Shown here: positions 5,239 to 61,628 of the stretch, in pieces
Layout: every line of letters starts with the position of its first letter
Numbering within the stretch: position 1 is the first letter of the stretch
DNA from: a virus
Direction: 5' to 3' (one strand)
DNA length: 64,000 nt
Virus record (IMG/VR): IMGVR_UViG_3300030328_002400
Location: 35,648-99,647 of that record
Notes under the pieces: generated by a model
Told to the model about the DNA's origin: nothing
Databases searched by the model: none
What the model saw: the letters and a program-made list of their open reading frames with translations, nothing else
Made by a program: the position numbers and the translations under genes

Positions 5239-5240
5239 TT

Positions 5241-6377: not shown

Positions 6378-6389
6378 AATAAATTAGAT

Positions 6390-6623: not shown

Positions 6624-6624
6624 G

Positions 6625-7293
6625 ATGGCAATATTAATACAGGCTAATAGTATAGGAAGTGATGCAGGACCTTTTGACTTGTTTTCTCAGGTCAATGGTT
6701 TTACTGAAGCATTTGAAACGAATATAACAGCAGTACAATTGTTGGTAGGATTTGTATCATATAATGCTCCGGTGGGTACCTCTATTGTTAGAATAGTCTC
6801 CACTAATCCAGACTGTGCAGGAACATATGAAGATATTGATATATCAACTAAACCTAATTGTCCAGCACAAACAATAGTAATTAGTATATGTAATAACTCT
6901 GCCACTATACAAGACAACTTTGATATAGTATTAAATGGAGTGACTATAGGATCAGTAGATCTAAGTGCAGCATCTCAAGATGGATCAGTAATGGTGGCTA
7001 GTAATGTTCCTCAAATTATAACCCAACCTAACTTTGCATGTCCCCTAGGTAATATGACTTTATCCTTTTTTGATCCCTCTCTTATTAGTTATAGAAATAC
7101 CATAGAGATGGTAAATACTCAGAACAATGGAAACGGTAATATAGGAGTACTTGATATAAGTAACTACAATGTAGTAGGAAATCAATTAGAAACTCCTTGT
7201 GAAGTAGCAGAATTTACTTTTAGCGGAGCTTCAGGAGATGATTTTGAATTTACATGGTATCATCAATACTGTTGTGATGATGGACCGTTTTAA
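6625..7293 (+). CDS. 'GPF-module' protein with C-terminal beta-rich domain
   Basis: IGSDAGPFDLFSQVNGF...VGF...APVGTSIVRIVS..C. Confidence 0.6.
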   Translation: MAILIQANSIGSDAGPFDLFSQVNGFTEAFETNITAVQLLVGFVSYNAPVGTSIVRIVSTNPDCAGTYEDIDISTKPNCPAQTIVISICNNSATIQDNFDIVLNGVTIGSVDLSAASQDGSVMVASNVPQIITQPNFACPLGNMTLSFFDPSLISYRNTIEMVNTQNNGNGNIGVLDISNYNVVGNQLETPCEVAEFTFSGASGDDFEFTWYHQYCCDDGPF

Positions 7294-17300: not shown

Positions 17301-18081
17301 TGCAGTACAAGAGTTAGATATAACACCAGCTGGATTTAATACAACAGCTGGAGTGGTAGTTAAAGATGATAATACATTAATAGCACTAGACACAACTGCC
17401 GGTAATGTAGTGGAGATAGATACTACATCAGCAGCAGTAACAGTTAAGTTTGCTTTACCAGCTGGTTATACATGGACAACAAATCTACTATATACCACCG
17501 CAGGTAAACTAATAACAATAGGAAAAAACACTGCAGCAGCAGAACACCACTATTTTGAGTGGGATTATGATAATGCAACAGTAACACCAGAGGTAGATAT
17601 AACAATCACTGCTGCACAATGGGATCACACAAAACCAGTTTCAGCTATTTACGAGTGTGAGTGTAATACAACAATAATTGCAGGTTCAACTACATGTGAC
17701 TATGCATATTTCCAAGTAACTCCATTAACTCCATTTGATGTAGTTTTCCTACAGGATGCATCTAGTAGTTGTTTACCTATACGTCCTACAGTTTGGGAAA
17801 CTCGAGAAGTAAGTAACATCACTCAACAAGCTTCTTGTACTAGTCCAGCTGGTGGACCTACAACCACTACTACAACTACCACTGCATTTGTTACTACTAC
17901 AACTACTACTAGTATATATCCATGCTATAAGTGGGAAGTAACAGGACCTATTGTAGTGTGGTATGATGACTGTAATGGAATACCTCAGAGTTTATCAGTA
18001 GCTAGTGGAGAAACAAAACAATATTGCACAAACGTTAATGTTGGTGCAGAAGGATCATTAATAGGAGCATGTGATATATAG
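11311..18081 (+). CDS. Tail stabilisation/muzzle protein (P22 gp10-like), N-terminal part, with insertions and a poly-Thr-linked C-terminal extension
   Basis: GLNMD..YALNA start, YWTDGINPRRY, GTYQFAVQY, GYMRDEVYAFEIVF, FGGDVFI and WTMSF...WISFHSYLP motifs typical of crAss-like stabilisation proteins. Confidence 0.75.
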   Translation: MATRKEIEDAKSQKAAAAKKDDKAQKGQVRLEFNQAQTGLNMDSTINQVKTGSLTYALNATVENFDSSSVNYQNEPGNEPCLSFPSGYELIGKHTIPEKKKNIFFLTNPSTGDSEIGFMFNNDCQYQTLVNAPCLRFTIDNPIHKVVHRITNCTTEIYWTDGINPRRYLDIDNIPYILDPNSDPGCDPVYTDKLDCNQLKIQPNFDIPFVEINSVTNVGNLVAGTYQFAVQYADAAGSDLTSYYSVTNPTPIADPLITTVNFNYPVGKSIEVRVSNLDLTGQYNYFNLAVIKTINDITSVELVGTYNITEADEIITYTGADQSPIQLSIADIFEKYPYYDVAQDLTSAQDTLIWSNLTSIDRINYQQIANNITLQWETHRIPPGEDYSNELNATNYRGYMRDEVYAFEIVFLLKNGKQTDSFHIPGPANLNPQPDVPNTNNDFIGEPEYYVGNIGYSPYWKIYNNATVVSESTQDTQDPNYKGPWYYGNFAYWESTEKYPCNTDIWGDLADTPIRHHKFPDVNVSPIVENPTITYDGNNIVPIMQDSDAIFPIGVKINNDQITQLITDSNLTQNQKDDIVAFKIVRGDRGTNKSVIAKGILRNMNKYTRDDQDYFYPNYPYNQVSGEDAFLQENNNAWNVDSKSYLVYFPDKRYGLTGNYIFPIPIAIDVEEDEGVYQYTSIVNGRPTQAKIKQNCIIEVCSLTRPISLQGRMTIGPGDFDVWACGHDSNGIPRSGYRVAWENPFNDINFDGTIPQSLFIKAPEGIGAGFRRCTIITPIDPEFETYTHVYSGYDPGDGDGGDAGGERYDPSQSGNGHMYDPDIDGTGINPQPKVELKNIMGVDCDLTSVSFVNAGLAGTGRYRPESFDPNSNCPEPVEGLNSYGCDTCIKTENPDNLIPWPQAAFGQPTNPLPQFAVNDSVSPQLAFPMPTDETENAGGVWELNNTLTPAETHRGGYDGFNSRYSRRSCLKCDRDIPIKPLDGADYEEAKDVLDKQIFNSPDTSFGQPFLGSVLKLESVMFGGGKAHFVEVKDNAKYKLLSKEAQIDALNSAENIAAMGAGSGFDAGIMFTVYQSYLTIYINGITRKNYGMQFNSRANYDYHLPVPNNSRGGIKQREIDLARYLIPGVQSFNNGQPPINNWNRESSVFIDTKTSDDILALPLPQNTPELRPNLNEPSTLVEYSRFNIGESGACDKPGLEQDIQVVSYYASMKNIIPNQWGQINSFQRIDTGYQKLVTATGTDTVFGGDVFISRFAFKTKLPFFIDNRVNGPDDSDIFFDEIGNVAYPKFWHSSRSILSNYRVTEGDDQNMYNLISVKARNFDCPTDPSLYPQGGGQTENPIAGTYRTFYDGYMYLFAYGIPNFYCETVYNTDLRQAFNTNEGDFWPHVSGGIPDDWLQETNVPIAQDNTYYYNVTFSKQNKENVFTQLPPDWIEDLCFTYFPFRAIYSDTQGDSADNRVNNWLVYRALSFHDFPQNYGNLTSLDGMMDRAVLARFENKALLYNKLLTIDTSNPQAAYIGNPRLFDGAPPVDFAETDLGYVGSQHKFLLKLPYGSVTADAKRGQIFLMAGSEVVDITKFGSGVNRFITNHLPFEILEYFPDVYIDNHFKGIGLHGVYDSKFDRIIVTKLDYIPLSDKVKYNSESKKFFVETVIDEELIVQEVFLFDKEYFCSKSWTMSFDFSTKTWISFHSYLPNFYIGENNFYYSGINTCCTEFTAILDTPDRSRIGEEDPLLDVIAGELQPPVLITTSTTTTSNPLFTTTTTTAYVPDCTVNIVISEELECEIDGVGYITVPSPTTTTICARPSGLLTDSFTEGYQTKTAAGPVVGTNSAQEACAIGSLLKNVSPGSQEIVGISFVYQATPVISQDGLIGSSVYFGDSSDCTRVADGWYTREADDYTRAIYVEDGVIRDDIDCDCNTLTTTTTTYTGGINECCGFIINNDNAEAYIWNNASVINFGNLINIPGYTGGKLALGPNTLYVWDGSLAFKKWTINTTNWSAVQELDITPAGFNTTAGVVVKDDNTLIALDTTAGNVVEIDTTSAAVTVKFALPAGYTWTTNLLYTTAGKLITIGKNTAAAEHHYFEWDYDNATVTPEVDITITAAQWDHTKPVSAIYECECNTTIIAGSTTCDYAYFQVTPLTPFDVVFLQDASSSCLPIRPTVWETREVSNITQQASCTSPAGGPTTTTTTTTAFVTTTTTTSIYPCYKWEVTGPIVVWYDDCNGIPQSLSVASGETKQYCTNVNVGAEGSLIGACDI

Positions 18082-18083
18082 AT

Positions 18084-18950
18084 ATGACTAAGATTATAAA
18101 CATAAAAATACTAGCTGCAAGTCCTAACACAGGACCATTTGACATATTTGATGATCAGAGCAATGTTATAGACACCTCTGTTTCGTTAAGTAAATTGGCA
18201 CACGGGGTTTCTTATACAGTGGATCAAAGTGTATTAGTAATAGAACTTAAAGCTCATGGAGATTGTGAGTACAGTAAATTTATTACTCTTGAAGATATAC
18301 CCGATGCAACATATTCGAATGCTGTATTTAAACCACTAAGAACAGGTTGTTTGTGGACTCATTTGAGAAACGATACTTTGTATAATTATTACTACGGAGA
18401 TATTGCTCCTTATATAATTGAATATCCTTTTTCATATAAGTATCATGATCAGATATTACAGAACATAAAAGACTATAGCAAGGTGTATACATATATACCA
18501 TCCGTATTAGGAGAATTTGATGCTAATAGTAAAATACAAACAGACGATAAATACTTTAATAAAGCTGTCCTGTATAATGGTCAGCAATCGACAGGTATAC
18601 TGGAGCTTGTTCCTAAACCTATGAATAACTTAAGTGAATATCTCCAATACCCTATATTAAATACTGATAGTAAAACTATTACTTTTGCAAAGACCGATAG
18701 TTTCTATCAGTATAATACTTTCTGGGCATTACAAAAAGATGACCAGGTACCTCTATTTAAAACATCCTGTGAATCCAAATCAATAGATAAGGTGGTGAAT
18801 CAGGACAACATGAACTATGGTGACTTATCATTTAAGAAGTCACAACTAAGAGCTAAGAATGTAAAGGTGAGACATATATTAGACAACTCCTCTACTACAC
18901 ATATTGTGAGTCAGTTTATTGTAGCACCAGCACAAATATCATATAAATAA
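18084..18950 (+). CDS. 'GPF-module' fused to the probable C-terminal domain of the muzzle protein
   Basis: N-terminal NTGPFDIF module, then LWTH...YYG...PYIIE...FNKAVLYNGQQSTGILEL...LRAK..KVR, resembling the usual stabilisation-protein C-terminus. Confidence 0.6.
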   Translation: MTKIINIKILAASPNTGPFDIFDDQSNVIDTSVSLSKLAHGVSYTVDQSVLVIELKAHGDCEYSKFITLEDIPDATYSNAVFKPLRTGCLWTHLRNDTLYNYYYGDIAPYIIEYPFSYKYHDQILQNIKDYSKVYTYIPSVLGEFDANSKIQTDDKYFNKAVLYNGQQSTGILELVPKPMNNLSEYLQYPILNTDSKTITFAKTDSFYQYNTFWALQKDDQVPLFKTSCESKSIDKVVNQDNMNYGDLSFKKSQLRAKNVKVRHILDNSSTTHIVSQFIVAPAQISYK

Positions 18951-21900
18951 TGGCATTAACACCAGGCAAAGCAAAGAAAATGTTAGACGATGGAACTGTC
19001 CATGGGAGAGGTCTGACTGATAAGCAGAAGAGATACTTCGGTGCTATAGCTGGAGGTGCAACACCTATGAAAAAGATTAACGGTGGTTGGTTAGATAAGT
19101 ATGCAATGGGAGGCACACTTCCTGGTGCATCCGGTATGATGTATGCACGTACAAATACCCCAGAACCTTTGTATACTCAATCAGAAATGAAAGCTCAGAA
19201 GGGTACCAGAGAATTTCCTAGAGAATTTCCTAGAGAGATAGCTATAGATAATACAGCTGTTAGATCTATTAAAATTCCACCTCTAGAAAAGCCTGCAAAA
19301 AAACCACCGAAGCCTGATTACACACCTCTTCAGACATCCCCACCTAAGGTGTTACCAATGTTTAGTCAGGATAACAGAACTTATGAACAGAGAAAAGCAG
19401 ACGAACAAAGGTTTGCAGATGCTACATCAACAAACTTACCAAAAGGAGCAGCAGCTCTTACATATCTTGCTAATCCTTTTAGATTAATAGGTGATCTATA
19501 TAATAAAACTGTACAACCAGCAGCAACGAGTCTGTTTTCTACTTCTACACTACAACCTGCTACAGGAGATTTCTGGACTAGTGATGAGGTGGCAAAACAA
19601 CTTAACTTAAGAAACGTTCAAAGACAAACAGGTCAGATATCCTATGGAGATCAACTGTATGGAAACCTTATGCAAGGACTTCCTGAAACAGGATGGGCTG
19701 GACTAAATCTTTTAGGAGGTAGAATTATTCAAGGTGGTCTCCAGTATCTTCCTGGTAAATCTGTTATTCTCAATACGTTAAAAAGAATTCCAGGTTACAA
19801 TTATGTGAGAAACACATACAATTATTTTAAACGACCTTTGGGTGATGCTGTTCCTATAGGTAGAGAGATATCTATTCCATCTTTGCTTACTAGAGGTAAA
19901 ACTCCACCGAATAAACTTCTTACTAATCCTAAGGTGGATGCAGATAATTTTATGCAACAATGGACCAATTCTCCAGGGTTTAATGAAAGATTTTATTCTC
20001 AGATTAAGCCATATAATCCTTTACCTAATGTTCGACCAGAGACCATTAAAAGAACACTTGCAGCTAGACATAGAGAATTACAAGCCTTAGAATCGGAGTT
20101 ACTTACATATTCAGAGGCAGGACTACATAAAGCTCTTCCTAGAGGTAAGTATCTTCAACAACAAGTTGATGATCTTACAATGGAAATAAATCAGATATAT
20201 AATGTGTACTATCCAAAACTAGCAGCGGACAATATGAAATTAATACAGTCTGGTAAGTTTCCTACTGTGTATAGTAGTACAGGATTTACGCCTGGATCAG
20301 GTGGGACATATTATATACCCCATGCTGGTAAACCTTTAAATACTTTGGATAATATATTTGATACTACTAATCAAATAGGTAATAAGAGTGTTGTAAATAC
20401 TGGTGGTGGTGCTTCAAGAAATAGCGAGATGTTAACAGGTATACATGAAACTCTTGGTCATGCTAGTAATGTAGGTGGAAGAGCTTTAGGCATTGAGACA
20501 AAATCGTTAATTAAAGGAGCACTTAAACCAAATCCAAGAATATCAAAGGGAACCAGTGAGCAAATTAAATCGTTTCTTGGTCCAGATGCAACTTTTGATG
20601 ACTGGGCAAAATATTTACAAGAGCCTACAGAAATGGTTGCGAGAGTGATGGAGTTGAGAAGGCAATACATTAACCCAAAATACTGGGGAACTTCTAAACA
20701 ATATGATATACCAGATAAGTTAATTGACCAAATGTTTAGAGATGGACTTTCTGGTAAAAGTAAAATAACTCCAGACTTCTTTAGAGTAATAGATAAAAAA
20801 GGATTAAAGAAATTAATGCAATCATTATATGCTACAGTACCAATAGCTATAGGAGCTGATGGATTATTAGAGTATGAAACTCCTAGTTCAGAGATACAAC
20901 TACCGAAATATAAAGATGGTGGATGGCTCGATAAGTATGAAGTGATAGAAGATGACATGGGACAGTTAACCAACCCAGGAAAGATAACTAAAATAAACTC
21001 CCCCAATATAACTATGAAGGGAGTAGACTTTCCTGTGCTAGGAATATCTGACACTGGTGATAAGAAGATGATGCAACCAGGTAAAGATTACAAGTTTGAT
21101 GGTAACTCTGTTACAGAGTATCCTATGGCTCAAGGTGGTATGAATATACCTCTTAAAACGATTAATAAGTATGGCGAACTAGAAAGACTAACTTACCCAA
21201 GTAGTGTATGGAAAGACAAAGAAGGTAATCCTCAAGAAGTATCTCTTTTAGATGAAGTAGTTGTTGATTATAAAGGTCCTATAGCATTAGCTAAAGAACA
21301 AATGGAAGAGCATGGAATAGCTGATTTTCTAAAAGCAGGTTATGTTAAAGGTAAGTCTGAAAGAGCATATAATAATATAGTCCCTGAAGGTTATGGAAAC
21401 GTAGCAAAAAATCTTGATAGAGTCAGAAGATATAGAGGAGATCTAGGACGTGATCCAGAAGCTTTGTGGCATTCCGGCCCAAAAGATAATAAGAGACACT
21501 ACACTATACCTAACCGAGAAGATGCATTTAGACTATATCTAGGAATGCCACAAGTTAATAATAGTTTTTCTGTAAGTGATTACAGACCGGGTGACTCAAA
21601 AGATAAGAGTATGGTTTATTTAAAACCTACCTACTTTAATGATGAAAAGATTAGACAGGCATTAGTAGATCAGTATTATAGAGAAGTAGATGATGAAGAT
21701 ATTAAACTAGGTGATAAGGATATTGGTAATGAAAGAGGACTACCAAGAGGACAGTGGCAAGGAGATGGTACACCATGGCCTTCGCATGATAACTCTTTAG
21801 GAGATTTTACATTTCATATGGGAGAGGATGAAAAAGGAACTTACATATCTATATATGATATATGGGACTTGAATCCATTCCAACCGGGAAAAGGATCATC

Positions 21901-24900
21901 TGTAAATAAAGCAGCTGATCAACTGTTGGAATATGTTACCTCATTAGGGAAAAAAGTTACTTCAAAATCAGAAGTATCTGACATATTTGAAGCAGGAAAA
22001 CCCTTTGAAGTATATGAAAGAATATATATTGACCCAGAAACCAGGAAAATATTACCTCAAGCACAATGGGGTGGAATAATCAAACAAGGAATGAAAAAAC
22101 TTCCTAAATATTTAAAAAAATGGTTAGGTAAAACAGATGATGTAGTACCAGGACCAACCTCAGAAGTAAATTTTATAGATAATGTGCATAAGCAGCAACT
22201 TGATGATGTAAATAGAATAGTTGATTATGAATTGTATAATGCTAAAAATCCACCTACACTTCAAGATTTGGTCAATCATTATAATAAACAGAGTGGTGAT
22301 GTTACTAGTATATATAGATATGGTTTTGATAGAGATAGGATAGGTGGTACTTGGTATTCTTCTGACTTAGGAGATCCATTAAGATATCAGCAATATGGAA
22401 GAGGTGATGGAGTTTTTAAAGCAGATGTACCTAATGATATTTTAAGAGAAAGTTATAGAGGTTTGGTAAATAATGCAGATGCAGCGGCAGGTAAGATACC
22501 AGGTCTTGATCCAAGATTTTTTCAAAATTCTTTAACAAACTTTAAAGAATTTAAACTAACTGAAGGAATAGCTTCAGTATTTGCAGATGAAAAATTTGGA
22601 AAAAAGACTATTGAAGAATATATAGATTATTTAAAATCACTTAAAAAACAAGGAGGATCTATAATGGCTCAAGATGGTTTAGATTTAAGTGGTCAACATC
22701 AAAAAGATTTTTTAAAGAATTGGTTACACTCTCCTATGGGTCAACAATTATTAAGTAATAGCTATGATGGAAATGAAAATAAGACAGATTTTTTAACATT
22801 CAGAAGAGGTGATGTTGCATTAGATAATGTTACAATTGAAACAGGTCTTGGTGATTTTATGGGTAGATATAACAAAAGACCACATCTAATACAAATAAAT
22901 GAAAATTACTTAGACAAGTTTGCATACTCACCTGGTAAAGAACCTAAAGATGTATTACTACATGAACTATCACATGCTCAAGACTATGATGCAGGATTGG
23001 GTTTTGGTAAGTTGAATATGCCGTTATCAGATGTTAAGTTTATAGAAGGTCTAACTAAGAATAAAATAAAAGAAGATAAAAAAAGTTATAATCTTAGTAG
23101 AGATGAAATTAAAGACTTAAGGTATTATGGAAGTCCTACAGAGGTAAGAGCAAGACTTAATGCTCTTAGATATTTTTATGAAACAGATTTAGGTGGTGGT
23201 AAGAATGATGAAGGGTTACCAAGTATTTTTAATTCAGAGGTAACACCTGAGATGCAAGAAACTATGAAATCACATGGTCAGTATAGAGACTTAAAAAAAG
23301 TATATACTGATGATGAAATCTTACAACTTTTAAATACTATATCTTATCAAGATTCTGATTTTAATCAGGAAGCAGATAAGTTTATATATGCAAGGTATGG
23401 TAAGGAACTACCTAAAGCTCAACAGGGTTTCTTCAGAAATCTTATAAAGAAGGGTGGTCCAAAAATTATGAAGTATCTTGATAATTTACTAGGCAAAACA
23501 GATGAGGTAGTAGAGGTTGCACCAGCAGCTGTTAAAAACTATGAAATGTTACCTATTAATAAAATAGATTACCCCACACACTATGGTACTACAGATACAC
23601 CAGGTGATGAGGTAATAACAAATGCTTTAGATATACTCAAGGCACAAGGAAAGTATACTGATGACGTAGGGTTTCAGATAAAAGATTTAGTAGGTGAGAA
23701 TATACAGTACTTAGGTAATCAAGGTGGTAGAACTATTGTTAATGTTCCATTACCAAATGGGAAGAGTCAAATGTTCTATAAATCTACTGACTTAGCAGGT
23801 AAAGGTACAGAGGGTCTTTGGCAACCCTATGCAGGTCATGCAAATATATTAGATTTTCCAGGACATGGAAAAGTTGAAAATTGGTTTATTAAAGATAGTG
23901 GATATAAAAATTGGTATGATAGTAAATCATTTAGAGACATAGCTGGTAACTTAGATAGAATAGCAGCAGAACAAGGATGGGATATGTCTGAACAAATACT
24001 AAAAAGTAAATTGAAACATGGTGGAGATTTACCAAAAGCTCAATGGGGTACATTTTTTAAAACCTTTTTAAAAAAAGCTCCTAAGCACGCTCCTAAGTAT
24101 ATAGATAATGTAGTCAAACCACAAAACTTTGATGACTTATTAAAATTGCCAGATGATGAGTTTGCAAAGTTTACTACTATGAGTAAAGATACATGGAAGC
24201 TGATAGGTAATCAAAAGCCTGATTATCAAAAAAGGCTGATGAATAACTATAAGAATATGTTTACTCCTAGTGATGATGCTGTCAATATAATTAAGAAAAG
24301 TAAAGAAGAATTAATAAGTTATTACAGAACACCAGAATATAGAACTAGATTAACAGAAGGTTTAAAAATATCAGATACAGAAGCAACTAAGTATATAGAT
24401 GATATGATAAAAGAAATGGATGAAGCTAATATTTTATTTAGTAATAAAAAATTACCTATGGACGGCTTAGCTCAGGGTGCATCAGGAAGTCCTAGAAGCA
24501 CCGTTACATTTACTGGTGCAATAAATGATATGAATGCTAATCAGTTAAGAACATTAGCATTGCATGAGTTTGGTCATGTGTCTTCATATGGTAAAAATTC
24601 TAATTTATTTAAGACATTTAAAGCTCCAAAGATTAGACCACGTACTAGGGACACATGGACTAAAGGAGGAAATAATGATCTGATACAATATTTTGATAAT
24701 CCAGATGAGGTTAGACAAAGAGGTATAGTTGCCTTAGATTATATGAAAAAGAATAATTTGTCTATTGATGATTTTATGAATATAAGTTATGATGATATAG
24801 TTAGAGGTACTTGGGATAAAAAAATACCAAAAGATATATTAGAACTTAGACAATACTATGATCCTAAACAAATGAAAGAATATCTTAAAAAAATGTATAC

Positions 24901-25780
24901 AATAGCAGTACCAGTAGGAGCATTTACTATGGGGGAGATGCAAGATGGAGGAGAACAAGTTCTTACTCAAGAAGACTGGGATAAGCTACCTATTATACAA
25001 ATGGAAAAAGATAATACAAATGTAGAAATACCTACTCTTCCATCTAGATATGAGGTTATAGGAAAAGAAATAATGGAATCTAATAAAGTTACAGGAATTA
25101 CTCCTGAATTATTATTTTCTCAAGCATGGGTAGAATCAAACTTAGACCCATCTATAAAAAATGATAAAGGTTATATGGGATTAGGGCAGATTGGGCAAGG
25201 TGTTATAGAAGATTATAAAAAGGCTAATAAAGTTTCTGAATTAGATCCATTTAATCCTCAAGATAATTACAATGTTCAGAACTGGTATATGAATAGGATA
25301 TATAATTCTGAATGGGTTGATAAACCAAATCAATTAGATGACGTAAGATTGGCAAAAACTCTAGCAGGGTATAGCTTAGGGCCTAAGAAAGCTAGAGAAT
25401 GGTTTACTAAATTTAAAAACGCAGGAAAAGATATCTATAATTCATTTGACTGGTTAGATGATTTACCTGATGAGACTAGTAAATATATTAAGATGATATT
25501 GCGGGGAGAAAATACTCAAAGAAGACCACGTGTCCAAGAGAATATCCAAGATGCTTTAATTAATGATGAGTATAAATCAATAAGAGATCTTTACTTTAAA
25601 CGTAAAGGTGGTGAAAACAAAATAATTAAAATATATAGTGACTATATAAATGGAAAAGTAGTAGATGAACAAAGTGAAAAAATATATGATAAACTAAACC
25701 GGATATATTTAAAAGATGCAAGAAAGGAAGGGATGAGCGTTCCTAATTATATTATGACTCATCTAGCAGATGATTCTTAA
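18950..25780 (+). CDS. Modular (polyvalent) cargo protein: three zincin-like modules, ART-like module, C-terminal lytic transglycosylase
   Basis: HETLGH..EPTEMVAR (20444/20621), HELSH..PTEVRAR (22961/23135), HEFGH..PDEVRQR (24563/24701); SLT motifs QAWVESN, GYMGLGQIG, LAGYSLGP. Confidence 0.7.
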   Translation: MALTPGKAKKMLDDGTVHGRGLTDKQKRYFGAIAGGATPMKKINGGWLDKYAMGGTLPGASGMMYARTNTPEPLYTQSEMKAQKGTREFPREFPREIAIDNTAVRSIKIPPLEKPAKKPPKPDYTPLQTSPPKVLPMFSQDNRTYEQRKADEQRFADATSTNLPKGAAALTYLANPFRLIGDLYNKTVQPAATSLFSTSTLQPATGDFWTSDEVAKQLNLRNVQRQTGQISYGDQLYGNLMQGLPETGWAGLNLLGGRIIQGGLQYLPGKSVILNTLKRIPGYNYVRNTYNYFKRPLGDAVPIGREISIPSLLTRGKTPPNKLLTNPKVDADNFMQQWTNSPGFNERFYSQIKPYNPLPNVRPETIKRTLAARHRELQALESELLTYSEAGLHKALPRGKYLQQQVDDLTMEINQIYNVYYPKLAADNMKLIQSGKFPTVYSSTGFTPGSGGTYYIPHAGKPLNTLDNIFDTTNQIGNKSVVNTGGGASRNSEMLTGIHETLGHASNVGGRALGIETKSLIKGALKPNPRISKGTSEQIKSFLGPDATFDDWAKYLQEPTEMVARVMELRRQYINPKYWGTSKQYDIPDKLIDQMFRDGLSGKSKITPDFFRVIDKKGLKKLMQSLYATVPIAIGADGLLEYETPSSEIQLPKYKDGGWLDKYEVIEDDMGQLTNPGKITKINSPNITMKGVDFPVLGISDTGDKKMMQPGKDYKFDGNSVTEYPMAQGGMNIPLKTINKYGELERLTYPSSVWKDKEGNPQEVSLLDEVVVDYKGPIALAKEQMEEHGIADFLKAGYVKGKSERAYNNIVPEGYGNVAKNLDRVRRYRGDLGRDPEALWHSGPKDNKRHYTIPNREDAFRLYLGMPQVNNSFSVSDYRPGDSKDKSMVYLKPTYFNDEKIRQALVDQYYREVDDEDIKLGDKDIGNERGLPRGQWQGDGTPWPSHDNSLGDFTFHMGEDEKGTYISIYDIWDLNPFQPGKGSSVNKAADQLLEYVTSLGKKVTSKSEVSDIFEAGKPFEVYERIYIDPETRKILPQAQWGGIIKQGMKKLPKYLKKWLGKTDDVVPGPTSEVNFIDNVHKQQLDDVNRIVDYELYNAKNPPTLQDLVNHYNKQSGDVTSIYRYGFDRDRIGGTWYSSDLGDPLRYQQYGRGDGVFKADVPNDILRESYRGLVNNADAAAGKIPGLDPRFFQNSLTNFKEFKLTEGIASVFADEKFGKKTIEEYIDYLKSLKKQGGSIMAQDGLDLSGQHQKDFLKNWLHSPMGQQLLSNSYDGNENKTDFLTFRRGDVALDNVTIETGLGDFMGRYNKRPHLIQINENYLDKFAYSPGKEPKDVLLHELSHAQDYDAGLGFGKLNMPLSDVKFIEGLTKNKIKEDKKSYNLSRDEIKDLRYYGSPTEVRARLNALRYFYETDLGGGKNDEGLPSIFNSEVTPEMQETMKSHGQYRDLKKVYTDDEILQLLNTISYQDSDFNQEADKFIYARYGKELPKAQQGFFRNLIKKGGPKIMKYLDNLLGKTDEVVEVAPAAVKNYEMLPINKIDYPTHYGTTDTPGDEVITNALDILKAQGKYTDDVGFQIKDLVGENIQYLGNQGGRTIVNVPLPNGKSQMFYKSTDLAGKGTEGLWQPYAGHANILDFPGHGKVENWFIKDSGYKNWYDSKSFRDIAGNLDRIAAEQGWDMSEQILKSKLKHGGDLPKAQWGTFFKTFLKKAPKHAPKYIDNVVKPQNFDDLLKLPDDEFAKFTTMSKDTWKLIGNQKPDYQKRLMNNYKNMFTPSDDAVNIIKKSKEELISYYRTPEYRTRLTEGLKISDTEATKYIDDMIKEMDEANILFSNKKLPMDGLAQGASGSPRSTVTFTGAINDMNANQLRTLALHEFGHVSSYGKNSNLFKTFKAPKIRPRTRDTWTKGGNNDLIQYFDNPDEVRQRGIVALDYMKKNNLSIDDFMNISYDDIVRGTWDKKIPKDILELRQYYDPKQMKEYLKKMYTIAVPVGAFTMGEMQDGGEQVLTQEDWDKLPIIQMEKDNTNVEIPTLPSRYEVIGKEIMESNKVTGITPELLFSQAWVESNLDPSIKNDKGYMGLGQIGQGVIEDYKKANKVSELDPFNPQDNYNVQNWYMNRIYNSEWVDKPNQLDDVRLAKTLAGYSLGPKKAREWFTKFKNAGKDIYNSFDWLDDLPDETSKYIKMILRGENTQRRPRVQENIQDALINDEYKSIRDLYFKRKGGENKIIKIYSDYINGKVVDEQSEKIYDKLNRIYLKDARKEGMSVPNYIMTHLADDS

Positions 25781-25810
25781 ACCTTAAATATTAGTGAATC
25801 TCCTTAATTA

Positions 25811-25829
25811 TTTGTATATTAATATTATA
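25811..25829 (+). promoter_or_regulatory. Conserved 19-bp intergenic motif (candidate phage late promoter)
   Basis: TTTGTATATTAATATTATA; 2 mismatches to the copies at 60982 and 61057. Confidence 0.5.
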
Positions 25830-25831
25830 AT

Positions 25832-28303
25832 ATGAGCAAAGTGAATTTAAACAAAATAAGTGTAAAACAACAAGGCGGACAGATGATTCCACAACAACCT
25901 GGAATGAGAAATCAAACACAACAAGTTGATCCTAGAGTACAACAAGTTAGTGAAATGATTTCTATGTCTATGAATGATGGAAAAGATATTGTTGATGTTA
26001 TATTAGAATTGACTCAACAAGAAGTAGATCAGCAACTTATAGCTCAAGCACTTATGATGGGGGGAATGCAACAAGAAGATGTTCAAACTGTATTTGAACA
26101 AGTGGCAGTAAAAGCTGAACCACCTGGTCCTTCCAGCCCATCTGAAGTAAATGCTAATCCACAATTATTAGCAAGAAATGAAGAACTAGAATCTCAACCA
26201 GTAGATGTATTAGAAGGTATAGAAACTGATCCTTTTGCAAAGTCAGGTATAGAAATTAAAAAAGAAAATAGAGGAAAGTTTACTAAATGGGCTAAAGCAC
26301 GTGGTATGGGCGTACAGGAAGCTGCTAGAAAGGTTTTAGCTAATAAAGATAAGTATCCTCCATCTGTAGTAAAGATGGCTAATTTTGCACGTAATGCAGC
26401 TAAATGGAAAAAGGATGAAGGTGGTGAAATGGACTATACAGAACAAATGAGATTAAAAGAAGGCTCATATAATAAAGGTAGAGAACATATTTTAGATCCT
26501 AGATTTAGACAAGATGGTGGTGGTGTTGATGATATTAAGGGGGTGCTTAATAATCTAGCCGCTAGTACATATGCAGGTTATCAGGCGGTTGAACCTTATA
26601 TAACTGTACAAGATGATGATGCCCAATGGCAAAAATATATAAAAAATCATCTGAATCCAGTATATTGGGCAGATAACCTTCTACAAATATCTAGTATACC
26701 TGCTAATTTGATTAGAGAAGGTATAGAAGGAATAGGTGGAAAGGGAGATGGAAAATTTAATGCGGGTGATATTTTACCAGATCTATATAATACTACCATT
26801 ATGGATGAGAATGCAAACAATAAACTGGTTTCTGAAACATTAGGTATAGATAATTTCGTGGGTGCTACATTAATAGATCTGGCATTAGATCCTACAAGTT
26901 ATGTTGGTCTAGGAATACTTAAAAATCTAGGTACAAAAGGTTTAGCAAAACTTTCCAGAAAATTTCCACAACTGGTTAAACACATTCCTCAATTAGCAAA
27001 ACAAGATGGTGGTGACATAAGAACTCCCAGCTTTTTAGAATGGTATGAAGATGGCGGAGATACAGATGTAAGTCAAAACTATATTAATAATGAAACAACT
27101 ACTACTGGTGGTGGAATAAATTTAAGTGATTGGAATCAAAGAGCATTATTAGCTGGATCAACTAGTAATAATATATTATCAGATGCTATTTTTACTGCAT
27201 CAGATATTTATAATGAATTATTTTCTGGAGAAAGAGGAATTAGTGGTTTACAGAAAGGAGCTTTGCGTGGATGGGATGAGAAAGCCAATTATAATAAAAT
27301 GGTAGCACCTTTATATTATAATTGGGATCTTAATGTAGATACTTCTGATGAAAATGTTAATGCTTTAGCAGCTTATTATAAAAAGGTTGGTGAAGATACA
27401 ATAGCACAAACAGAAGCTAATCAAGCAGCAGCAGATGCTGAGATAGCAGCAACATATGAAGGAATGAATTTAGATGGAATAGACTTAGCTAGTATCCTTA
27501 GTGGAAAACCTGTTGTAACTGCTAAGACTAAGCAAGAATCTATAAACTCTATAGATAAAGATGGTGATGGTATTCCAGATATGATTGATATTGATGGAGG
27601 AGATGGTTCAGGTATAGCACCTAAACAATGGGGAGGTGACTTTAATCCATATGATCCAGATTTTGATATAGCTGATTACTTACAACAGTTTACTCAAACA
27701 GATTATGTGAGAGATACTCAAAATGTAGCTGATGCACAATTACAAAAAAGATTTCCTGATTTAGGTCTTACACCTCAACAAGAACAAAATCAACAATTTG
27801 TAGATAATTTAGAAACTCAAGCTGTAAATCAAAATATTGACAATGAAGAAGAGGTGGTGGTTGAACCTACTGCTGAAGAGTTATGGGATGCAGTTAATAA
27901 ACCAGAACTAGAAGCATCAAATAAACTAGAAGGAACATTGAATAGAGTTATGGATAGTAATGTAATGAGAGGGTTTAGTAGTTTATCAGATTCTGCAGTT
28001 AAAGCAGCTGGATTTTTTAATAGATTATATGAACAAGAAGAGGCTGATAAAGCTTATGAGGATAGAGCAGACGCTCTTATGGCAGATAATCTCGTTGCTA
28101 CTGTAACTAGTGATGCAGGTGATTTAGGTAATTGGAAAACAAATTGGGGATCATTTCGTAGTACAAAAGATAGAGTTACTGGTTATGATGAATTTTTTGA
28201 ACAACCAAATCTGAGAGTTGCTCAAAGAGGATTAGAAATAGAAGTAGATCAAAATTTATTAACGGAATTGATAGCAGCAGGTGCTGATATAGAAATATTA
28301 TAA
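25832..28303 (+). CDS. Acidic modular internal virion/cargo protein
   Basis: Multiple xQxGG motifs; basic KKENRGKFTKW...ANFARNAAKW module; DKDGDGIPDMIDID Ca-binding-like loop. Confidence 0.6.
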   Translation: MSKVNLNKISVKQQGGQMIPQQPGMRNQTQQVDPRVQQVSEMISMSMNDGKDIVDVILELTQQEVDQQLIAQALMMGGMQQEDVQTVFEQVAVKAEPPGPSSPSEVNANPQLLARNEELESQPVDVLEGIETDPFAKSGIEIKKENRGKFTKWAKARGMGVQEAARKVLANKDKYPPSVVKMANFARNAAKWKKDEGGEMDYTEQMRLKEGSYNKGREHILDPRFRQDGGGVDDIKGVLNNLAASTYAGYQAVEPYITVQDDDAQWQKYIKNHLNPVYWADNLLQISSIPANLIREGIEGIGGKGDGKFNAGDILPDLYNTTIMDENANNKLVSETLGIDNFVGATLIDLALDPTSYVGLGILKNLGTKGLAKLSRKFPQLVKHIPQLAKQDGGDIRTPSFLEWYEDGGDTDVSQNYINNETTTTGGGINLSDWNQRALLAGSTSNNILSDAIFTASDIYNELFSGERGISGLQKGALRGWDEKANYNKMVAPLYYNWDLNVDTSDENVNALAAYYKKVGEDTIAQTEANQAAADAEIAATYEGMNLDGIDLASILSGKPVVTAKTKQESINSIDKDGDGIPDMIDIDGGDGSGIAPKQWGGDFNPYDPDFDIADYLQQFTQTDYVRDTQNVADAQLQKRFPDLGLTPQQEQNQQFVDNLETQAVNQNIDNEEEVVVEPTAEELWDAVNKPELEASNKLEGTLNRVMDSNVMRGFSSLSDSAVKAAGFFNRLYEQEEADKAYEDRADALMADNLVATVTSDAGDLGNWKTNWGSFRSTKDRVTGYDEFFEQPNLRVAQRGLEIEVDQNLLTELIAAGADIEIL

Positions 28304-28305
28304 TT

Positions 28306-31113
28306 ATGGCTAAAATTAAAATAAATAAATTACCTGAAGGTTTTGAATTAGTTGACGGTAAAGTAAAAAGAATTTCCAAAAAAAGAGATGGAGGTTATGT
28401 AACTGGTGATCAAGCAGATTATGGTTTAGTAACAACCCCACAAGAATATTATGGTCAAACTAATTTTAATAACAATGAAGATAATGATGTAAGATATAGT
28501 TTAAGTAGAGTACCAAGAGAAGATGCAAATGTAGAAGCAGAAGGAGGAGAAACTGTATTAGCTGATTTAAATAGTAATGGTCAATTTGGTTTATATGATA
28601 TTAAAGGTCCTAGACACTCTAGTGGTGGTGTACCTATGTTTTTACCAGAACAATCCTTTATATATTCTGATACAGCAGCTTTAAAATTTAATAAAGATGA
28701 GATGGCTGAGTTTGGAATAGAATCAGGTAAAAGAAAAACTCCAGCAACTATATCTAAAAGATATCCTCTTAATCCTTATCTAGGAGCTATAAATGATCAA
28801 TATGCAGATGATATTTCTACACTAAGTGCAGAACTCATGTTAAAGAAAAATATGAATAACTTGTCTAAGTTAGCTTATGGACAAGAACTTAAAAAGAAAT
28901 TTGAAGATGGAGTGCCTTTAGCTGCATATCCATACTTAGATTCTAAAGGTATAGACCCTATAGAATTTACTGCTCAAGTAGAAGAAATATCTAAAAAACA
29001 AGCTCAAATAAATGCTATAGAAAGTTTACCCCCTGATCAACAACAAGCTATTATGATGTTACAAGAAATATTAGCACAAGCAGAACAACAAGTTCCAAAT
29101 AATGTTGACATGAGTTCTGGTCCTCAAGCTGGTTCTCCTGGTCAAGAACAATTAACTATGGCTAACAATCAATTAGGTCAAGATTTAATGGCTCAAAGAG
29201 GTGGTCAAACTGCTAGTAGCTATGCTAAAGAGCAGGGATTAGCATGGCCACAAGATACTAAAGATCCTGTATTTAATGAAGATACTAAGATGTGGGAATT
29301 TGATGATGGTACTCCTCCATTACAACAAGGAGAAGCTAGAAAACTAGTTCTTGACTTTAATGATGGTCAACCCATACAAGATCAGTATAAGATAACTGTT
29401 AGTGAAGAAGTGACAGGAAATGATGTAAGTGCAAATATTGAAACTAATGTCTCAGAAGGAAAAATTATTAATCCTTTACCTAAAACTCATGAACAATACG
29501 AAGCATTTGAAGATGCAATTGCTAGAGGTAATGTACAAAAAATTGTACCAAAGTATGATCCTTCTAAAAGAAAAACTGAGTATACACTTATTGAAATAGT
29601 ACCTAATCCACTGGATGCTCAACCTGAACTAGTAATGGTTGAGAGTGCAGATACAAGTGCTGGTACAGGAGAAATGATAAATATCTATGATGAAGATCAA
29701 GAAAAGATAATGGGAGTAATAGAAGGATTTCCTGATGCTAAATTTAGAAGAGGTATATATTCTGGTTTACAAAGAAGAGAAAATCAAGCTGGAGCTGGAT
29801 CTAATAGTTATGGTTATGATTTATCAGGTGAAGAAGCTGCAAAGGATTTTGAACTTAGATGGGGTGATGCATGGAAAGGTGGTCAATTTGAAGGAGCTAA
29901 TGGTGAAATGATTACTATTCCACCTGTAGAAGGATTTGATTATTCTTTATCAAAAGATGATCCAAAGTATAAAGAACAATGGGCAGCAGTTCAAAATAAT
30001 ATGCAGGCTATTGATAATGCATTTAGTGCTAAACATGGATTAACTCCAAGAGATATATTTGCAGGACAAAGAAAAGGAGAAAAGGTTGATGGATTACTAG
30101 GATTACATACACATAGTATAGATAGAAGATATCTAGGTAAACCAGGATCAAATGAATTAACAGCATCTTTAGATGATCCTATAAACGAAATACCTGGAAT
30201 TATTCCACCTCCTGCCATACCTCCTAAACCAGAACCATGGTTACAAGATGTATTAAATATAAATGCACAAAATCAATTAGAGAATCCTCTAATATTACCG
30301 GTAAGACCAAAATTACCTAGACAAAAAATAGACTATGTATTAGATGATTGGACAGGAAAAGTAAATAATATTAATGCAGCTTTAAATTCTAAACTACAAC
30401 AACTAGGAGCATTTGCAGGTAGATCTGGAGTAATGGGATCTGATATAGGTAAAGCCGTAGAGTTAAGTGAGAATGCTATAAATACAACTAATCTTAATAA
30501 TGTAGGAATAGTTAACCAAACAGCAGCTCAACAAGCTAGATTAGATATGGAGAATAATCTACAAAATCTTAAATTAAGAATGGATGAAGATGATGGAACT
30601 AACTTAGCATTACAAAGATTTACAGATTTCAAAAATTGGGATACAACAAAAAGTGCTGAATTAATGAATACCTTACTTACTAATCAGGCTAATACATATA
30701 ATCTAAATATGGCTAGAAAACCACAATTTAGAATAGATCCTACACGAGCTGGTGAGGGTACATGGACGGGTGATAGTAACATTTTTCACCAAACTGATCA
30801 AACATCTGAAGAAGAAAAAAGAAGAGACAAGATTTTTGAAACATGGAATTGGTTAGATACAAGAGGTATTGAAGATGATGATAAAGATAATTATATGAAG
30901 TATATACTAGGGGATTATGCTAAAAATAATAATAATGATGATGATGATGAATTTGAACAATATGCAGGACCACCTAGTGTAGTTTCTAAAAATCCTCCTA
31001 ATAGTTATTTTAATCCAGCAGCAAACGTTGAATCACGAAGAGGTAAAGAAGTAAAAAAACTAAAAAAATCAGCATATCCTTATTGGATGTCAGTAGGAAA
31101 AATGGGACGCTAA
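28306..31113 (+). CDS. Internal virion cargo protein
   Basis: ANVEAEGGETV...GPRHSSGGVP...IYSD N-terminal domain; Q-rich linkers; lies just upstream of the RNAP block. Confidence 0.6.
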   Translation: MAKIKINKLPEGFELVDGKVKRISKKRDGGYVTGDQADYGLVTTPQEYYGQTNFNNNEDNDVRYSLSRVPREDANVEAEGGETVLADLNSNGQFGLYDIKGPRHSSGGVPMFLPEQSFIYSDTAALKFNKDEMAEFGIESGKRKTPATISKRYPLNPYLGAINDQYADDISTLSAELMLKKNMNNLSKLAYGQELKKKFEDGVPLAAYPYLDSKGIDPIEFTAQVEEISKKQAQINAIESLPPDQQQAIMMLQEILAQAEQQVPNNVDMSSGPQAGSPGQEQLTMANNQLGQDLMAQRGGQTASSYAKEQGLAWPQDTKDPVFNEDTKMWEFDDGTPPLQQGEARKLVLDFNDGQPIQDQYKITVSEEVTGNDVSANIETNVSEGKIINPLPKTHEQYEAFEDAIARGNVQKIVPKYDPSKRKTEYTLIEIVPNPLDAQPELVMVESADTSAGTGEMINIYDEDQEKIMGVIEGFPDAKFRRGIYSGLQRRENQAGAGSNSYGYDLSGEEAAKDFELRWGDAWKGGQFEGANGEMITIPPVEGFDYSLSKDDPKYKEQWAAVQNNMQAIDNAFSAKHGLTPRDIFAGQRKGEKVDGLLGLHTHSIDRRYLGKPGSNELTASLDDPINEIPGIIPPPAIPPKPEPWLQDVLNINAQNQLENPLILPVRPKLPRQKIDYVLDDWTGKVNNINAALNSKLQQLGAFAGRSGVMGSDIGKAVELSENAINTTNLNNVGIVNQTAAQQARLDMENNLQNLKLRMDEDDGTNLALQRFTDFKNWDTTKSAELMNTLLTNQANTYNLNMARKPQFRIDPTRAGEGTWTGDSNIFHQTDQTSEEEKRRDKIFETWNWLDTRGIEDDDKDNYMKYILGDYAKNNNNDDDDEFEQYAGPPSVVSKNPPNSYFNPAANVESRRGKEVKKLKKSAYPYWMSVGKMGR

Positions 31114-31172: not shown

Positions 31173-34100
31173 ATGGCTACATATATAAAAGGACACAAGA
31201 ATTTTTATCCAGATATTAAACCCTTTACACCAGACTATAAATTTCTGTCTGCAACATTGGATGCACGTCAGGCTATTTATGATCATAACTGGAAAGCTCA
31301 AAATGATCTATATAATAGAGTAGTATATTCTGATCTAACTAATCCTAATAGTATAGAATACCAAAGACAATTTACTGAAAAATTAGGTCCACAATTAGAA
31401 AAAATAGCTGGGTTAGATTTATCTTTACAGCAGAATGTTGAGTCTGCAAAATCTGTTTTTGCACCATTCTTTCAGGATGATACTGTTGTATATGATATGG
31501 TATGGACAGGTAGATTTAATGATGCAGTTAAAGAATATAATCAATTAGCTAGAAGTAATAAAGAAGAAGTTAGACAATTAGCTAGTGCAGATGTAGGATT
31601 ACAGAAGTTAGAAATAGACAGAAGGAAATTTATGAATGCTGGACGTGATGAAATACTTAATCAACCACTACCAGAATTAGTATTAGATGCAGATTTAGTT
31701 AGAAATGCACAAAAATTTCTATCTGAACTAGATCCTGCACTTACTATTACTATGCCTGTACCTAATCTAATTGATACAGGAAAAGTAGATAAGAAGGGTG
31801 ATCCAATATTTAGAGAAGATAATAAGTGGATTATTACTCAAACAAATGGATCTTTAATAGAAGGAGCAGCTTATGAACAAATAGTTAATTCTCTTTACAA
31901 TGATCCTAGAGTTACAAAATATTATGATGCTAAATCTTATGTACAAGCAAATATGTTTGCTAGAGAAGCTGTAGAAAGTGGTCAGGTAGCATCAGAAGAT
32001 CAAGGACTGCAATTGTGGGCAAATGAAACTATTGCAAGAATAAGATCAAAAAATTTAGAATATCAGGGTGAAGCAGAATATGCTGTTAGAAAAGCAAACC
32101 AAGTAAATATTAATTGGTCTAATTATGCTGAATCTCACGGAGTAGTACCAGGAAGTTTAGATGAACAAATTATGCAGAATAATTTAGATCAAGCTGAGCA
32201 GTTAGAAGCAGAGTTAAACAGATATCTTAATCAAAATACTTTTGCTGATAGTGATGATCCAGATGATATGGCTACATATAATAAAGCGGCCACTCTTTTA
32301 GCTAACTATAATATGGATATGGATATGCGTAAAGCTGCTAGACAATTTTCTCAAAGAGGAATGAAAGTAGAGCAAAAGGTAAATGACTATAGTTTAGCTG
32401 ATTATAAATCTACGTTAAAAATGAATGAACAGACCCATCAGTATACGTTAGATATGCTCAAGCAGGAAGATAAATATAATAGAGAGATGGAGTTAAAAGG
32501 AGTAGGTACAGGTTTGAACTGGGGTGGAGTTACACAGGGATATACAGGAGCAGGATCAAACTTTACAGTAGATGAGGGTGGAGAAATAATATTAGAAAAT
32601 GATTTTTATGCCTTAGATATTGTAAAAAGGGAGCAAGATTTTAATAGACTACAAAATGAAATGGTTAGTATGATACCTGACATGATTGTTGATTCAGGGA
32701 AATATGATGCTGATGAAGATGGACAATATACAATACCTTTAGTAAGTAATCCAGATCCAGATAATGACAGTGATTGGTATACAGGGGATATTGCTGGTAT
32801 AGAACAAATATTAGGAACAAGAGTAAAAGATGATGATGATTTAGATACTGATCAGTTTGAATATAGAGATGCTATCACTAATGTATTTGGAGAAATGCAA
32901 GACTACTACAATAATACCTGGGATGTACATAATGCTGATCCTGATAAAACAGGAGACCAGACTCTCTTTAATAGTATTCATGAAAGATTATTTGGTGGTG
33001 GAGCTGGTCAATTACCTGGTTTAGCTAAAAGGTTTCAGTTATACAATCAGGCAGTTAGACTATCTGAAGAGGATAGAACTAATAAAATAAACACTATAAA
33101 TGCTTCTCTTTTAAAAATAAGTGAAGATGATTTAACCAGTGTTCAACATGATATTAAAGAATTATATGGTAGTGGATGGGTGCCACCATTAGATAACAAT
33201 GGAAACTTCATGTCAAAAGATGCATACATGAAAAAAATGTATGCAATAATTCAAGATGCAGTATCTAGTGAAGAACTAGATCCATATCTTGAGATAGATG
33301 AAAAATTTGCATTTGATTGGGATTTGATGACAACCAAAATGGTTGGGACCGGAGGACCTGGGACGCAGTCAGCACCTACATCTGTTCCTGTATTAGATAA
33401 GAATAAAATAGATAAACATTCAGTGAAAGTTTATGATTATTTCTATACAAAATTAAAAGAACAAATAGAAAACACATCTTCAAGTACTTATTATAATAAT
33501 TCACGTGGTATAACTTCAACAGGTGGTGGAAGTAATATTTCATTTACACCTAGTCAAAGTATTACATCTAATTTAAATCCAGCACCAGGAAGTGATAAGT
33601 TTACGTTCCTAAAGGTTATGCAAGAACAAATGAAAAGTGATTTAGCAAGTGCAACTGGAGGATCTGGTTTTGTGGGATTTACAGCTAAGGACGTTAAAAA
33701 TTTGTATGAAGTAGATAGTGATAAAATTGATTATACTGATAAAGATAATATAATAGCACAATGGATTTGGGACAAAATTATAACTACTCAAGCTTCTTTA
33801 GGAGATAAGAGTAAGACTGCATTTAAAACTACATTCTTTTCAACTTGGGGACCTGAAGTATATGATGACAATAATAAATTAGTAAAGGATCCATTAGCAG
33901 CTTATCAATTTTCAAACTTTGATGATGCACTTACAAAGGCAATTACTAGTGACAATACAAACTATCCTATGATAGATGGAGATAAAGCAACCAAGGCAGA
34001 TATTCAAAAGGTTTTAAATACTGGATTTACATATCTATTTCCAAGATCAGCTACAATAAAAGCTAATAGGGCTGGTTACGACAGAACAGGTCAAGGAAGT

Positions 34101-61627: not shown

Positions 61628-61628
61628 A

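Follow-up and report, generated by a model that had tools for sequence, protein, structure and literature searches.

In Bacteroides phage crAss001, the muzzle gene is followed by the genes for cargo proteins C1 (gp45) and C2 (gp46) and then by an RNA polymerase (RNAP) block, the products of which are also packaged cargo (Bayfield et al. 2023, PMC10172136). The structure of that phage resolves only fragments of C1, namely parts bound to the tail barrel (amino acids (aa) 214–245) and to the portal (aa 425–552), and C1 is thought to be the first protein to leave the particle (PMC10172136). Polyvalent proteins, in which several unrelated effector or enzymatic domains are joined in one chain, were described by Iyer et al. 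2017 (PMC5512222), in a paper that leaves crassviruses out and in which the word 'linker' does not occur. Crassviruses carry several megadaltons of cargo protein, which they have to select, arrange and eject. The subject of the present study is a peptide of about 12 residues that recurs at the seams between modules in three adjacent large proteins (A, B and C) of a virus represented by IMG/VR record IMGVR_UViG_3300030328_002400. The record is a linear virus of 99.6 kb (88% complete), and the stretch analysed here (the window; 64,000 nucleotides (nt), positions 35,648–99,647 of the record) is its right-hand 64 kb. Both the motif and its seam position are considered established.

Genomic setting

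As judged from its sequence, the phage is an uncultured marine crAss-like phage (crassvirus): the major capsid protein matches PF23898 (Crass_capsid) with an E-value of 1.4e-30, and scans of the head module also found a P22-like portal and the large terminase subunit. The order of muzzle, cargo and giant RNAP genes is found here as well, with six large open reading frames (ORFs A–F) after a muzzle-type gene (nt 11311–18081; phrog_37948, E 1e-104). The first three, all on the + strand, encode A (nt 18950–25780, 2276 aa), B (nt 25832–28303, 823 aa) and C (nt 28306–31113, 935 aa). By synteny with the crAss001 cargo genes only, these three proteins are probably carried in the particle. They are followed by the RNAP block, consisting of D (nt 31173–34439), E (nt 34448–48298, + strand, 4616 aa) and F (nt 48301–54222). 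Protein E aligns with both gp50 and gp47 of crAss001, which are RNAP-related cargo proteins; here a single ORF encodes such cargo, for which crAss001 has separate gp47- and gp50-type proteins.

Enrichment of the motif and its composite form

The original prediction held that short strings of the xxxGG and AQxG types punctuate A, B and C, and all 24 of the strings it listed are present in the proteins named. Compared with within-protein shuffles, A, B and C together have 13 copies of the pattern [KRQ][KRQDEWH]GG (7, 4 and 2) where 1.5 are expected, and eight of AQ.G (6, 1 and 1) where 1.1 are expected. The former is absent from the other 30 ORFs of at least 250 aa, and the latter is found outside A, B and C only in the N-terminus of the muzzle protein (two copies), the remaining ORFs of at least 250 aa having none. 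These counts also agree with the earlier remark that comparable punctuation is missing from the fibre and ribonucleotide reductase proteins. In the muzzle-type protein, KAQKG and QAQTG lie within the first 40 residues (nt 11311–11440, + strand). Plain GG is at most mildly enriched (observed/expected 22/16 in A, 12/5.5 in B and 5/5.6 in C), and the signal therefore lies in the context and not in Gly-Gly itself. Two copies of MKKGG and one of YKKGG, which had also been noted, are present in small Lys-rich ORFs at 61.7–63.9 kb. There are three such ORFs (+ strand; nt 61608–61796, nt 63526–63870, and from ~63.9 kb to the window end), each with a Lys run behind [MY]KKGG; in one of them AQEG lies 15 aa upstream of [MY]KKGG.

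As both patterns were derived from the very data counted, an independent test was made on relatives, using 80 related IMG/VR loci retrieved via a protein C profile and reduced to 47 that are non-redundant. In these 47 loci, [KRQ][KRQDEWH]GG occurs 66 times in A homologues (17 expected), 93 times in B homologues (16 expected) and 51 times in C homologues (16.5 expected), and the corresponding counts for AQ.G are 75 (10 expected), 50 (17 expected) and 37 (19 expected). Both patterns are thus enriched 3- to 7-fold in homologues of A and B, and 2- to 3-fold in those of C. In homologues of D, E and the muzzle protein, both were at or under expectation, the fetched loci being without muzzle N-termini. 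The proposed enrichment, with frequencies in A, B and C well above those expected from composition, is accordingly confirmed in the relatives.

Sequence contexts show that xxxGG and AQxG belong together as halves of a single composite of ~12 aa, and either half may occur alone. The consensus, [KR]-[YK]-G-G-x-L-P-K-A-Q-x-G, is identical across A, B and C homologues according to position counts, with Y or K at −7, GG at −6/−5, S, D or E at −4, L at −3, P at −2 and K at −1 relative to A-Q-x-G, often followed by E at +5. An example from the AQ.G contexts of A homologues is KYGG-S-LPKAQ-D-G, and a variant without Pro, [LIVM][IVM]KAQxG, is seen in the clade of relatives L048–L054. The AQ.G copies of D, E and the muzzle protein were not found in this composite context. 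A motif profile (21 seeds, iterated; threshold 7 bits) gave 83 matches of at least 7 bits in the A, B and C homologues of the 47 non-redundant loci (138 thousand aa) and 0 in the D, E and muzzle proteins (178 thousand aa, again without muzzle N-termini). The motif as a whole is long and two-part, with variable spacing between the parts.

Only two full composites occur in the window, both of them in A and, like all copies listed below, on the + strand; the remaining copies are half-sites or degenerate. The first, YARYG-KE-LPKAQQG (nt 23387–23434, aa 1480–1495; 18.5 bits), closes the zincin module and is followed by an amphipathic helix. The second, KLKHGG-D-LPKAQWG (nt 24008–24058, aa 1687–1703; 17.4 bits), lies where homology blocks end and begin, in a segment with a predicted local distance difference test (pLDDT) score below 50, and a Lys-rich amphipathic helix comes next.

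Module organization of proteins A, B and C

That the motif falls at module boundaries, as originally proposed, is borne out by linkers in the AlphaFold models of B and of A 1200–1780, and by BLAST endpoints in A. The AlphaFold2 model of B (39 homologues) has four confident helical domains with low-confidence linkers between them, and none of the eight motif copies lies outside the segments of pLDDT <50, which account for 50% of the protein (chance probability ~0.004). For A 1200–1780 (17 rows; a mediocre model with a mean pLDDT of 54), all copies are in low-confidence segments: KKQGG/AQDG, ARYG/LPKAQQG and LKHGG/LPKAQWG fall in the three such stretches that separate the zincin, a beta-rich domain and the module after it. 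Of the internal BLAST endpoints in A, 42% lie within 8 aa of a motif site (7.9% expected). Six high-scoring segment pairs end at aa 1484–1494, the SLT blocks end at aa 2215–2224, and the conserved tail starts at aa 2220. In relatives, LysM domains start 3–10 aa past a motif, and alignment places the motif at both ends of the zincin module. A, B and C are shown by these data to be built as beads on a string, in which the composite or one of its halves marks the seams, also where the variable middle meets the constant end-pieces.

Protein A contains an SLT transglycosylase (aa 2046–2162) and an M91-like zincin (aa 1255–1347, with HELSH at 1338), and has a second HExxH at 1872. The domains found in 31 A homologues are SLT (15), LysM (12), YkuD (6), PG_binding_1 (6), SET (2) and ART-PolyVal (1), most of which act on peptidoglycan, and A and its relatives are polyvalent proteins in the sense given above. 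The homologues span 539 to 2185 aa and share only an N-terminal module of ~95 aa (ending PMAQxG) and a C-terminal tail of ~55 aa, of which an invariant GG is the first element. The A protein of this phage has ~650 additional aa at its N-terminus, and therefore the usual position of the N-terminal leader is now an internal junction (KYKDGG, aa 653–658).

The N-terminal copies of A, KKINGG-WLDKY-AMGG, are at nt 19070–19114 (aa 41–55); the same leader, NGGWLDK[FY] with GGSLPKAQ, recurs in one relative (L095). The internal junction itself, KYKDGG-WLDKY (nt 20906–20938, aa 653–663), is the site of the N-terminal leader M..KKSIGLPGG in other A homologues and adjoins an endpoint hot spot at aa 660–670. 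YPMAQGG (nt 21119–21139, aa 724–730), where there is a further BLAST endpoint hot spot (aa 730), closes the module with which most A homologues begin, and the half-site LPQAQWGG (nt 22052–22075, aa 1035–1042) is the third paralogous leader. KKQGG-SIM-AQDG (nt 22643–22678, aa 1232–1243; pLDDT <50) precedes the M91-like zincin, MQDGG (nt 24938–24952, aa 1997–2001) precedes the SLT module, and KRKGG (nt 25598–25612, aa 2217–2221), the GG of which is invariant in the 31 A homologues, opens the conserved C-terminal tail. In many relatives (L009, L024, L034, L042, L046, L048–L054 and L080), the A homologue has a Cys-containing element, KAADGG.D....CHKC(G)...LPKAQ.G, directly before a junction at ~aa 130–330; the KAADGG...CHKC(G) element is not present in the A protein of the window.

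Two parts are common to B homologues, an N-terminal leader with GG at its end and a C-terminal tail that comes after GGE. In B itself the conserved leader ends with KQQGG (nt 25865–25879, aa 12–16). A domain related to C1 of crAss001 (B aa 131–193, gp45 aa 368–427; hhalign probability 84%, E 7e-6) has AKSG at its N-terminal edge (nt 26237–26248, aa 136–139) and KDEGG at its C-terminal edge (nt 26411–26425, aa 194–198). Further copies are RQDGG (nt 26507–26521, aa 226–230), KQDGG with YEDGG (nt 26999–27058, aa 390–409) and KQWGG (nt 27623–27637, aa 598–602), and the conserved tail is opened by AQRG (nt 28220–28231, aa 797–800), where relatives have K.GGE. Gene fission at motifs was considered and rejected, as the split B genes of two relatives (L009 and L011) break elsewhere and few ORFs end at a motif.

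The C family is large, with 759 relatives at E <= 0.001 among 8000 scored candidates, and has a near-invariant N-terminal domain (aa 1–255). Within this domain lies KRDGG (nt 28381–28395, aa 26–30), in which G29 and G30 are invariant in 120 of 120 retrieved homologues and both sides are conserved. Its GG thus sits inside a conserved region, aa 1–28 being as conserved as the residues that follow. MAQRGG (nt 29188–29205, aa 295–300) is a conserved island within a variable linker, and SRRG (nt 31033–31044, aa 910–913), with G913 conserved in 120 of 120 homologues, opens the conserved C-terminal tail. A sequence profile search of the PDB with the C family gave nothing significant, hhalign gave no significant match between the C family and gp45, and a Foldseek search of the PDB with the B model gave nothing at E <= 0.001. 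The portal-binding domain crAss_CARG1 (Pfam PF25725) had no match at E <= 10 in six frames of the genome, and the match between B and gp45 falls outside that domain. An Atlas feature comparison pointed from C aa 1–260 toward crAss_CARG1 (score 0.92, 163 shared features), which is to be read as a hint only.

The ends of these proteins have conserved features of their own. Near-invariant C-terminal tails were observed in B (...LIAAGADIEIL, nt 28232–28303) and A (...YDKLNR...NYIMT..., nt 25613–25780), each after a GG/AQxG seam, and these tails are candidates for real assembly or anchoring elements. The starts of B (nt 25832–25880) and C (nt 28306–28395) are similar (M-x-K-[VI]-x-[LI]-N-K...), and most A and B homologues have a common leader, KKS[IV]...GG; such shared N-termini may act as a common signal of their own, separate from the internal junctions. 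Elsewhere in the window, several ORFs (nt 4990–7293 and 18084–18300) have a similar opening module of ~70 aa (...GPFDLFS...), which is unrelated to the junction motif.

Distribution among viruses and level of selection

A degenerate DNA pattern for GG-x-[LF]-PKAQ-x-G was found in at least 119 IMG/VR stretches. In 80 stretches that were inspected, 102 of 103 matches lie within open frames of at least 150 aa and have basic or aromatic residues upstream. A crassvirus capsid gene is present in 38 of 50 motif-bearing records, and in 15 of the 16 among them that are at least 90% complete; five of the records without a capsid match were tested, and all five have a C homologue. A slightly stricter pattern gave a single match in 596 Gb of prokaryote sequence (185,579 species genomes), outside any long open frame. 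No composite copy is present in gp44 to gp50 of crAss001. A search for cultured relatives, in which A and C were compared by tblastn with 50,697 phage records, gave no match, and in the same records the capsid protein had a sole match, to Leptolyngbya phage Lbo-JY46 (26% identity). LPKAQ-type strings in a relevant context were not found in published papers, and the composite peptide appears to be undescribed.

The 89 distinct copies use the synonymous codons for Gly, Leu, Pro, Ala and Gln interchangeably (GGT/GGA, CCT/CCA, GCT/GCA, TTA/CTA/CTT). Copies inside one genome are identical at 20–26 of 30 bases (29 in one pair), and their flanks are at random identity. The codon pattern indicates that selection acts on the peptide, not on the DNA. 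A recombination signal at the DNA level can be ruled out as the main cause because synonymous sites vary and the flanks are at random identity.

Possible roles of the peptide

The motif was originally seen as a portable tag, either a cut site or a docking peptide, by which arbitrary effector modules could be loaded into the head. The portable, peptide-level character and the location at seams of exchangeable modules in adjacent cargo-type proteins have held up; a cut site and a general loading tag have not. The latter does not fit the RNAP-block cargo, since D, E and F carry no copy. Because the RNAP-block proteins are untagged both here and in all relatives, the tag marks only a subset of the cargo, namely proteins with cell-wall enzymes, amphipathic helices and TonB-box-like strands. 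The best guess, held with low confidence, is that the peptide is an uncut handle for docking or register on the cargo that leaves the particle first. It would serve as a recognition handle for a putative phage-specific partner, and not as a scissile site, and would mark only envelope-acting proteins (peptidoglycan enzymes and amphipathic helices), leaving RNAP cargo unmarked. It is this limitation to envelope-acting proteins that leads to the proposal of docking or registering in the exit path, where the handle would hold extended, partly unfolded chains in the portal, tail barrel and muzzle, much as segments of C1 are held in crAss001. The Gly and Pro of the peptide would allow every module to fold on its own while the chain is threaded, and any module between two handles would be carried along, which would explain the free shuffling of modules. 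In gp45, Phi-x-GG strings are found at the edges of both resolved parts (aa 207–210, 426–428 and 559–562).

Several points weigh against such a handle. Its partner is a postulated one. What is resolved of C1 in crAss001 consists of helices and a domain and does not include the GG strings. The LPKAQ half is wholly missing from that phage, and the function of the composite may therefore be one that gut crassviruses do not need. The alignments used for modelling were shallow (39 and 17 rows), which may be partly behind the low pLDDT values. In addition, seams with short N-terminal leaders ending in GG would also be expected of a processing site.

Processing is a somewhat unlikely alternative. A, B and C would be polyproteins, cut at or near the motif (after GG or within AQxG) to release their modules, and the enzyme would be an unrecognised phage or host protease acting in the particle or after ejection. 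The position of the motif at seams, the short GG-ending leaders in A homologues, B and C, and the presence in one chain of modules with different likely target compartments are all in keeping with cleavage. Processing by zincins has been proposed for polyvalent proteins (PMC5512222), and cleavage for the RNAP polyproteins of crAss-like phages (10.1101/2020.03.07.982082), which lends this reading further support, and the parts of the crAss001 protein on both sides of the portal would fit separate fragments too (PMC10172136). No cleavage data were found in the crAss001 papers.

The cut originally envisaged, by a protease of the type found in adenovirus or African swine fever virus (ASFV), is not supported by the gene content, as the 88%-complete genome yielded no clan-CE (C48, C5), C39, S77, S78 or ClpP family. 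Clan CE (PF02902, PF00770) had no match at E <= 1, and the C39 peptidase (PF03412) and the prohead protease and ClpP families (PF03420, PF04586, PF00574) had none in six frames of the genome. Pfam and PHROG scans of the nine ORFs of the head module revealed nothing protease-like, and a transglutaminase core, sought with Lys/Gln cross-linking in mind, was not found. Two predicted proteases encoded by the phage itself were considered and rejected as general processors. Among 35 relatives whose A gene is complete, only five encode the embedded M91-like zincin, and the motif is present without it in 25. The other is the N-terminal domain of an ORF in the tail-fibre region (nt 363–3509, + strand, 1048 aa), of which the first ~350 aa resemble a chymotrypsin-fold serine protease; the ORF matches PHROG 20754 ('protease') and has GDSGS at aa 344, and the domain had no Pfam (Trypsin_2) match and no PDB sequence match. 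This trypsin-like domain is absent from 16 of 16 near-complete motif-bearing genomes. Every specific protease candidate is thereby removed, together with the adenovirus/ASFV analogy; the enzyme of a cleavage reading would have to be a host protease or an unrecognised one of the phage. Further points against cleavage are that the fused 4616-aa RNAP protein E, the most obvious polyprotein of all, has no copy, that residues 1–28 of C ahead of the GG are as conserved as those behind it, and that the motif is long, two-part and of variable spacing.

A true sorting code, by which a module flanked by YGG-x-LPKAQ-x-G would be threaded into the portal/tail channel, or released there by an unrecognised protease, and so be delivered first to the host envelope, is unlikely. 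If such a code existed, it would amount to a natural plug-and-play system for effector loading in phage, present in at least 119 viral contig stretches, mostly of crassviruses. A sorting or release code, if true, would explain why modules are freely shuffled in A, B and C.

It is distinctly doubtful that the motif is directed at the host. In this reading it would be recognised in the periplasm after ejection, for example by the cell wall, an energy-transducing system or a host protein, in concert with the amphipathic helix and the TonB-box-like strand often found behind it. As would be expected, only proteins with peptidoglycan-directed modules bear the tag, and in A there are cases where a Lys-rich helix comes after LP[KQ]AQxG and TD[DE]VV after the helix. 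The pattern [DEN][DE]VV[VETP] is also enriched in homologues of A (6, 0.8 expected), B (8, 0.6 expected) and C (5, 0.7 expected), and absent from those of D (0.7 expected). Many copies, however, have no helix or TonB-box-like strand after them, and the full motif has no counterpart in cellular genomes. Mimicry of a host peptide is therefore rejected, the only DNA match in the 185,579 prokaryote species genomes lying outside long open frames. TonB-box-like strands were observed in A as LDEVVVD (nt 21251–21265, aa 768), TDDVVPG (nt 22136–22150, aa 1063) and TDEVVEV (nt 23501–23515, aa 1518), and also in B (aa 673); in the A of the window [DEN][DE]VV[VETP] occurs three times (0.03 expected). Two of the strands lie ~25 aa past LP[KQ]AQxG and a Lys-rich amphipathic helix.

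Harder still to credit is a passive linker, that is, a favoured flexible hinge inherited with module duplications and lacking any specific partner. The peptide is rich in Gly and Pro and lies in low-confidence segments, and some copies are clearly paralogous leaders. Against this stand the invariant K-A-Q and the L-P, which are retained between unrelated flanks in three proteins and in at least 119 viral stretches, a constraint far above the needs of a hinge; moreover, other long multi-domain proteins of the same phages do without the motif. Use as a DNA-level site for module exchange by homologous recombination, suggested by the homology blocks that end at the motif and by the shuffling of modules among phages, is disfavoured and highly improbable, as the synonymous differences between copies are scattered, the flanks (see above) are unrelated, and the identical runs are too short for homologous recombination.

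Whichever role applies, a 12-residue peptide that marks a cargo subset and its seams in at least 119 viral contig stretches is a concrete experimental handle. It is also a simple annotation marker for envelope-acting cargo and for module borders in very divergent ORFs that would otherwise resist annotation.

Comparison with known systems

The T4 internal proteins and the inner-body proteins of phiKZ-like phages bear capsid-targeting sequences and prohead-protease sites, which need a dedicated protease (S77 or related) and a scaffold core. The present peptide is similar in being short, in being found on proteins of the packaged, internal kind and in lying at N-termini and domain seams, but the genome yielded no protease of this sort and the RNAP cargo bears no tag. 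Gly-Gly-X sites are cut by adenain, pS273R of ASFV and Ulp1-like clan CE enzymes, and double-glycine leaders by C39 peptidases. Gly-Gly at a junction is common to these sites and to the present motif, in which, however, the conserved part runs 8 residues past the GG, the hydrophobic −4 position of adenain is not conserved, and no C5, C48 or C39 enzyme accompanies it.

The cargo-loading peptides of encapsulins are terminal, single, and bind the shell protein. They offer a parallel as short conserved peptides on flexible linkers that bring unrelated cargo into an HK97-fold shell, and differ from the copies described here, which are internal and multiple and which some of the cargo lacks. Polymorphic toxins have pre-toxin demarcation motifs, of which VENN in CdiA is one; these are peptides at the border of constant and variable parts. 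Like them, the crassvirus motif is a short conserved peptide where constant parts meet exchangeable modules, although its sequence and secretion context are different and several copies occur in each protein.

With the polyvalent proteins (PMC5512222), A and its homologues have in common the joining of SLT, LysM, YkuD, PG_binding_1, SET, ART-PolyVal and zincin domains, the zincin being an optional module here. As for C1 of crAss001 (PMC10172136), gp45 to gp50 have neither the LPKAQxG half nor a composite copy, but the genome position is the same, between the muzzle gene and the RNAP block, and a 60-aa domain is common to B and gp45.

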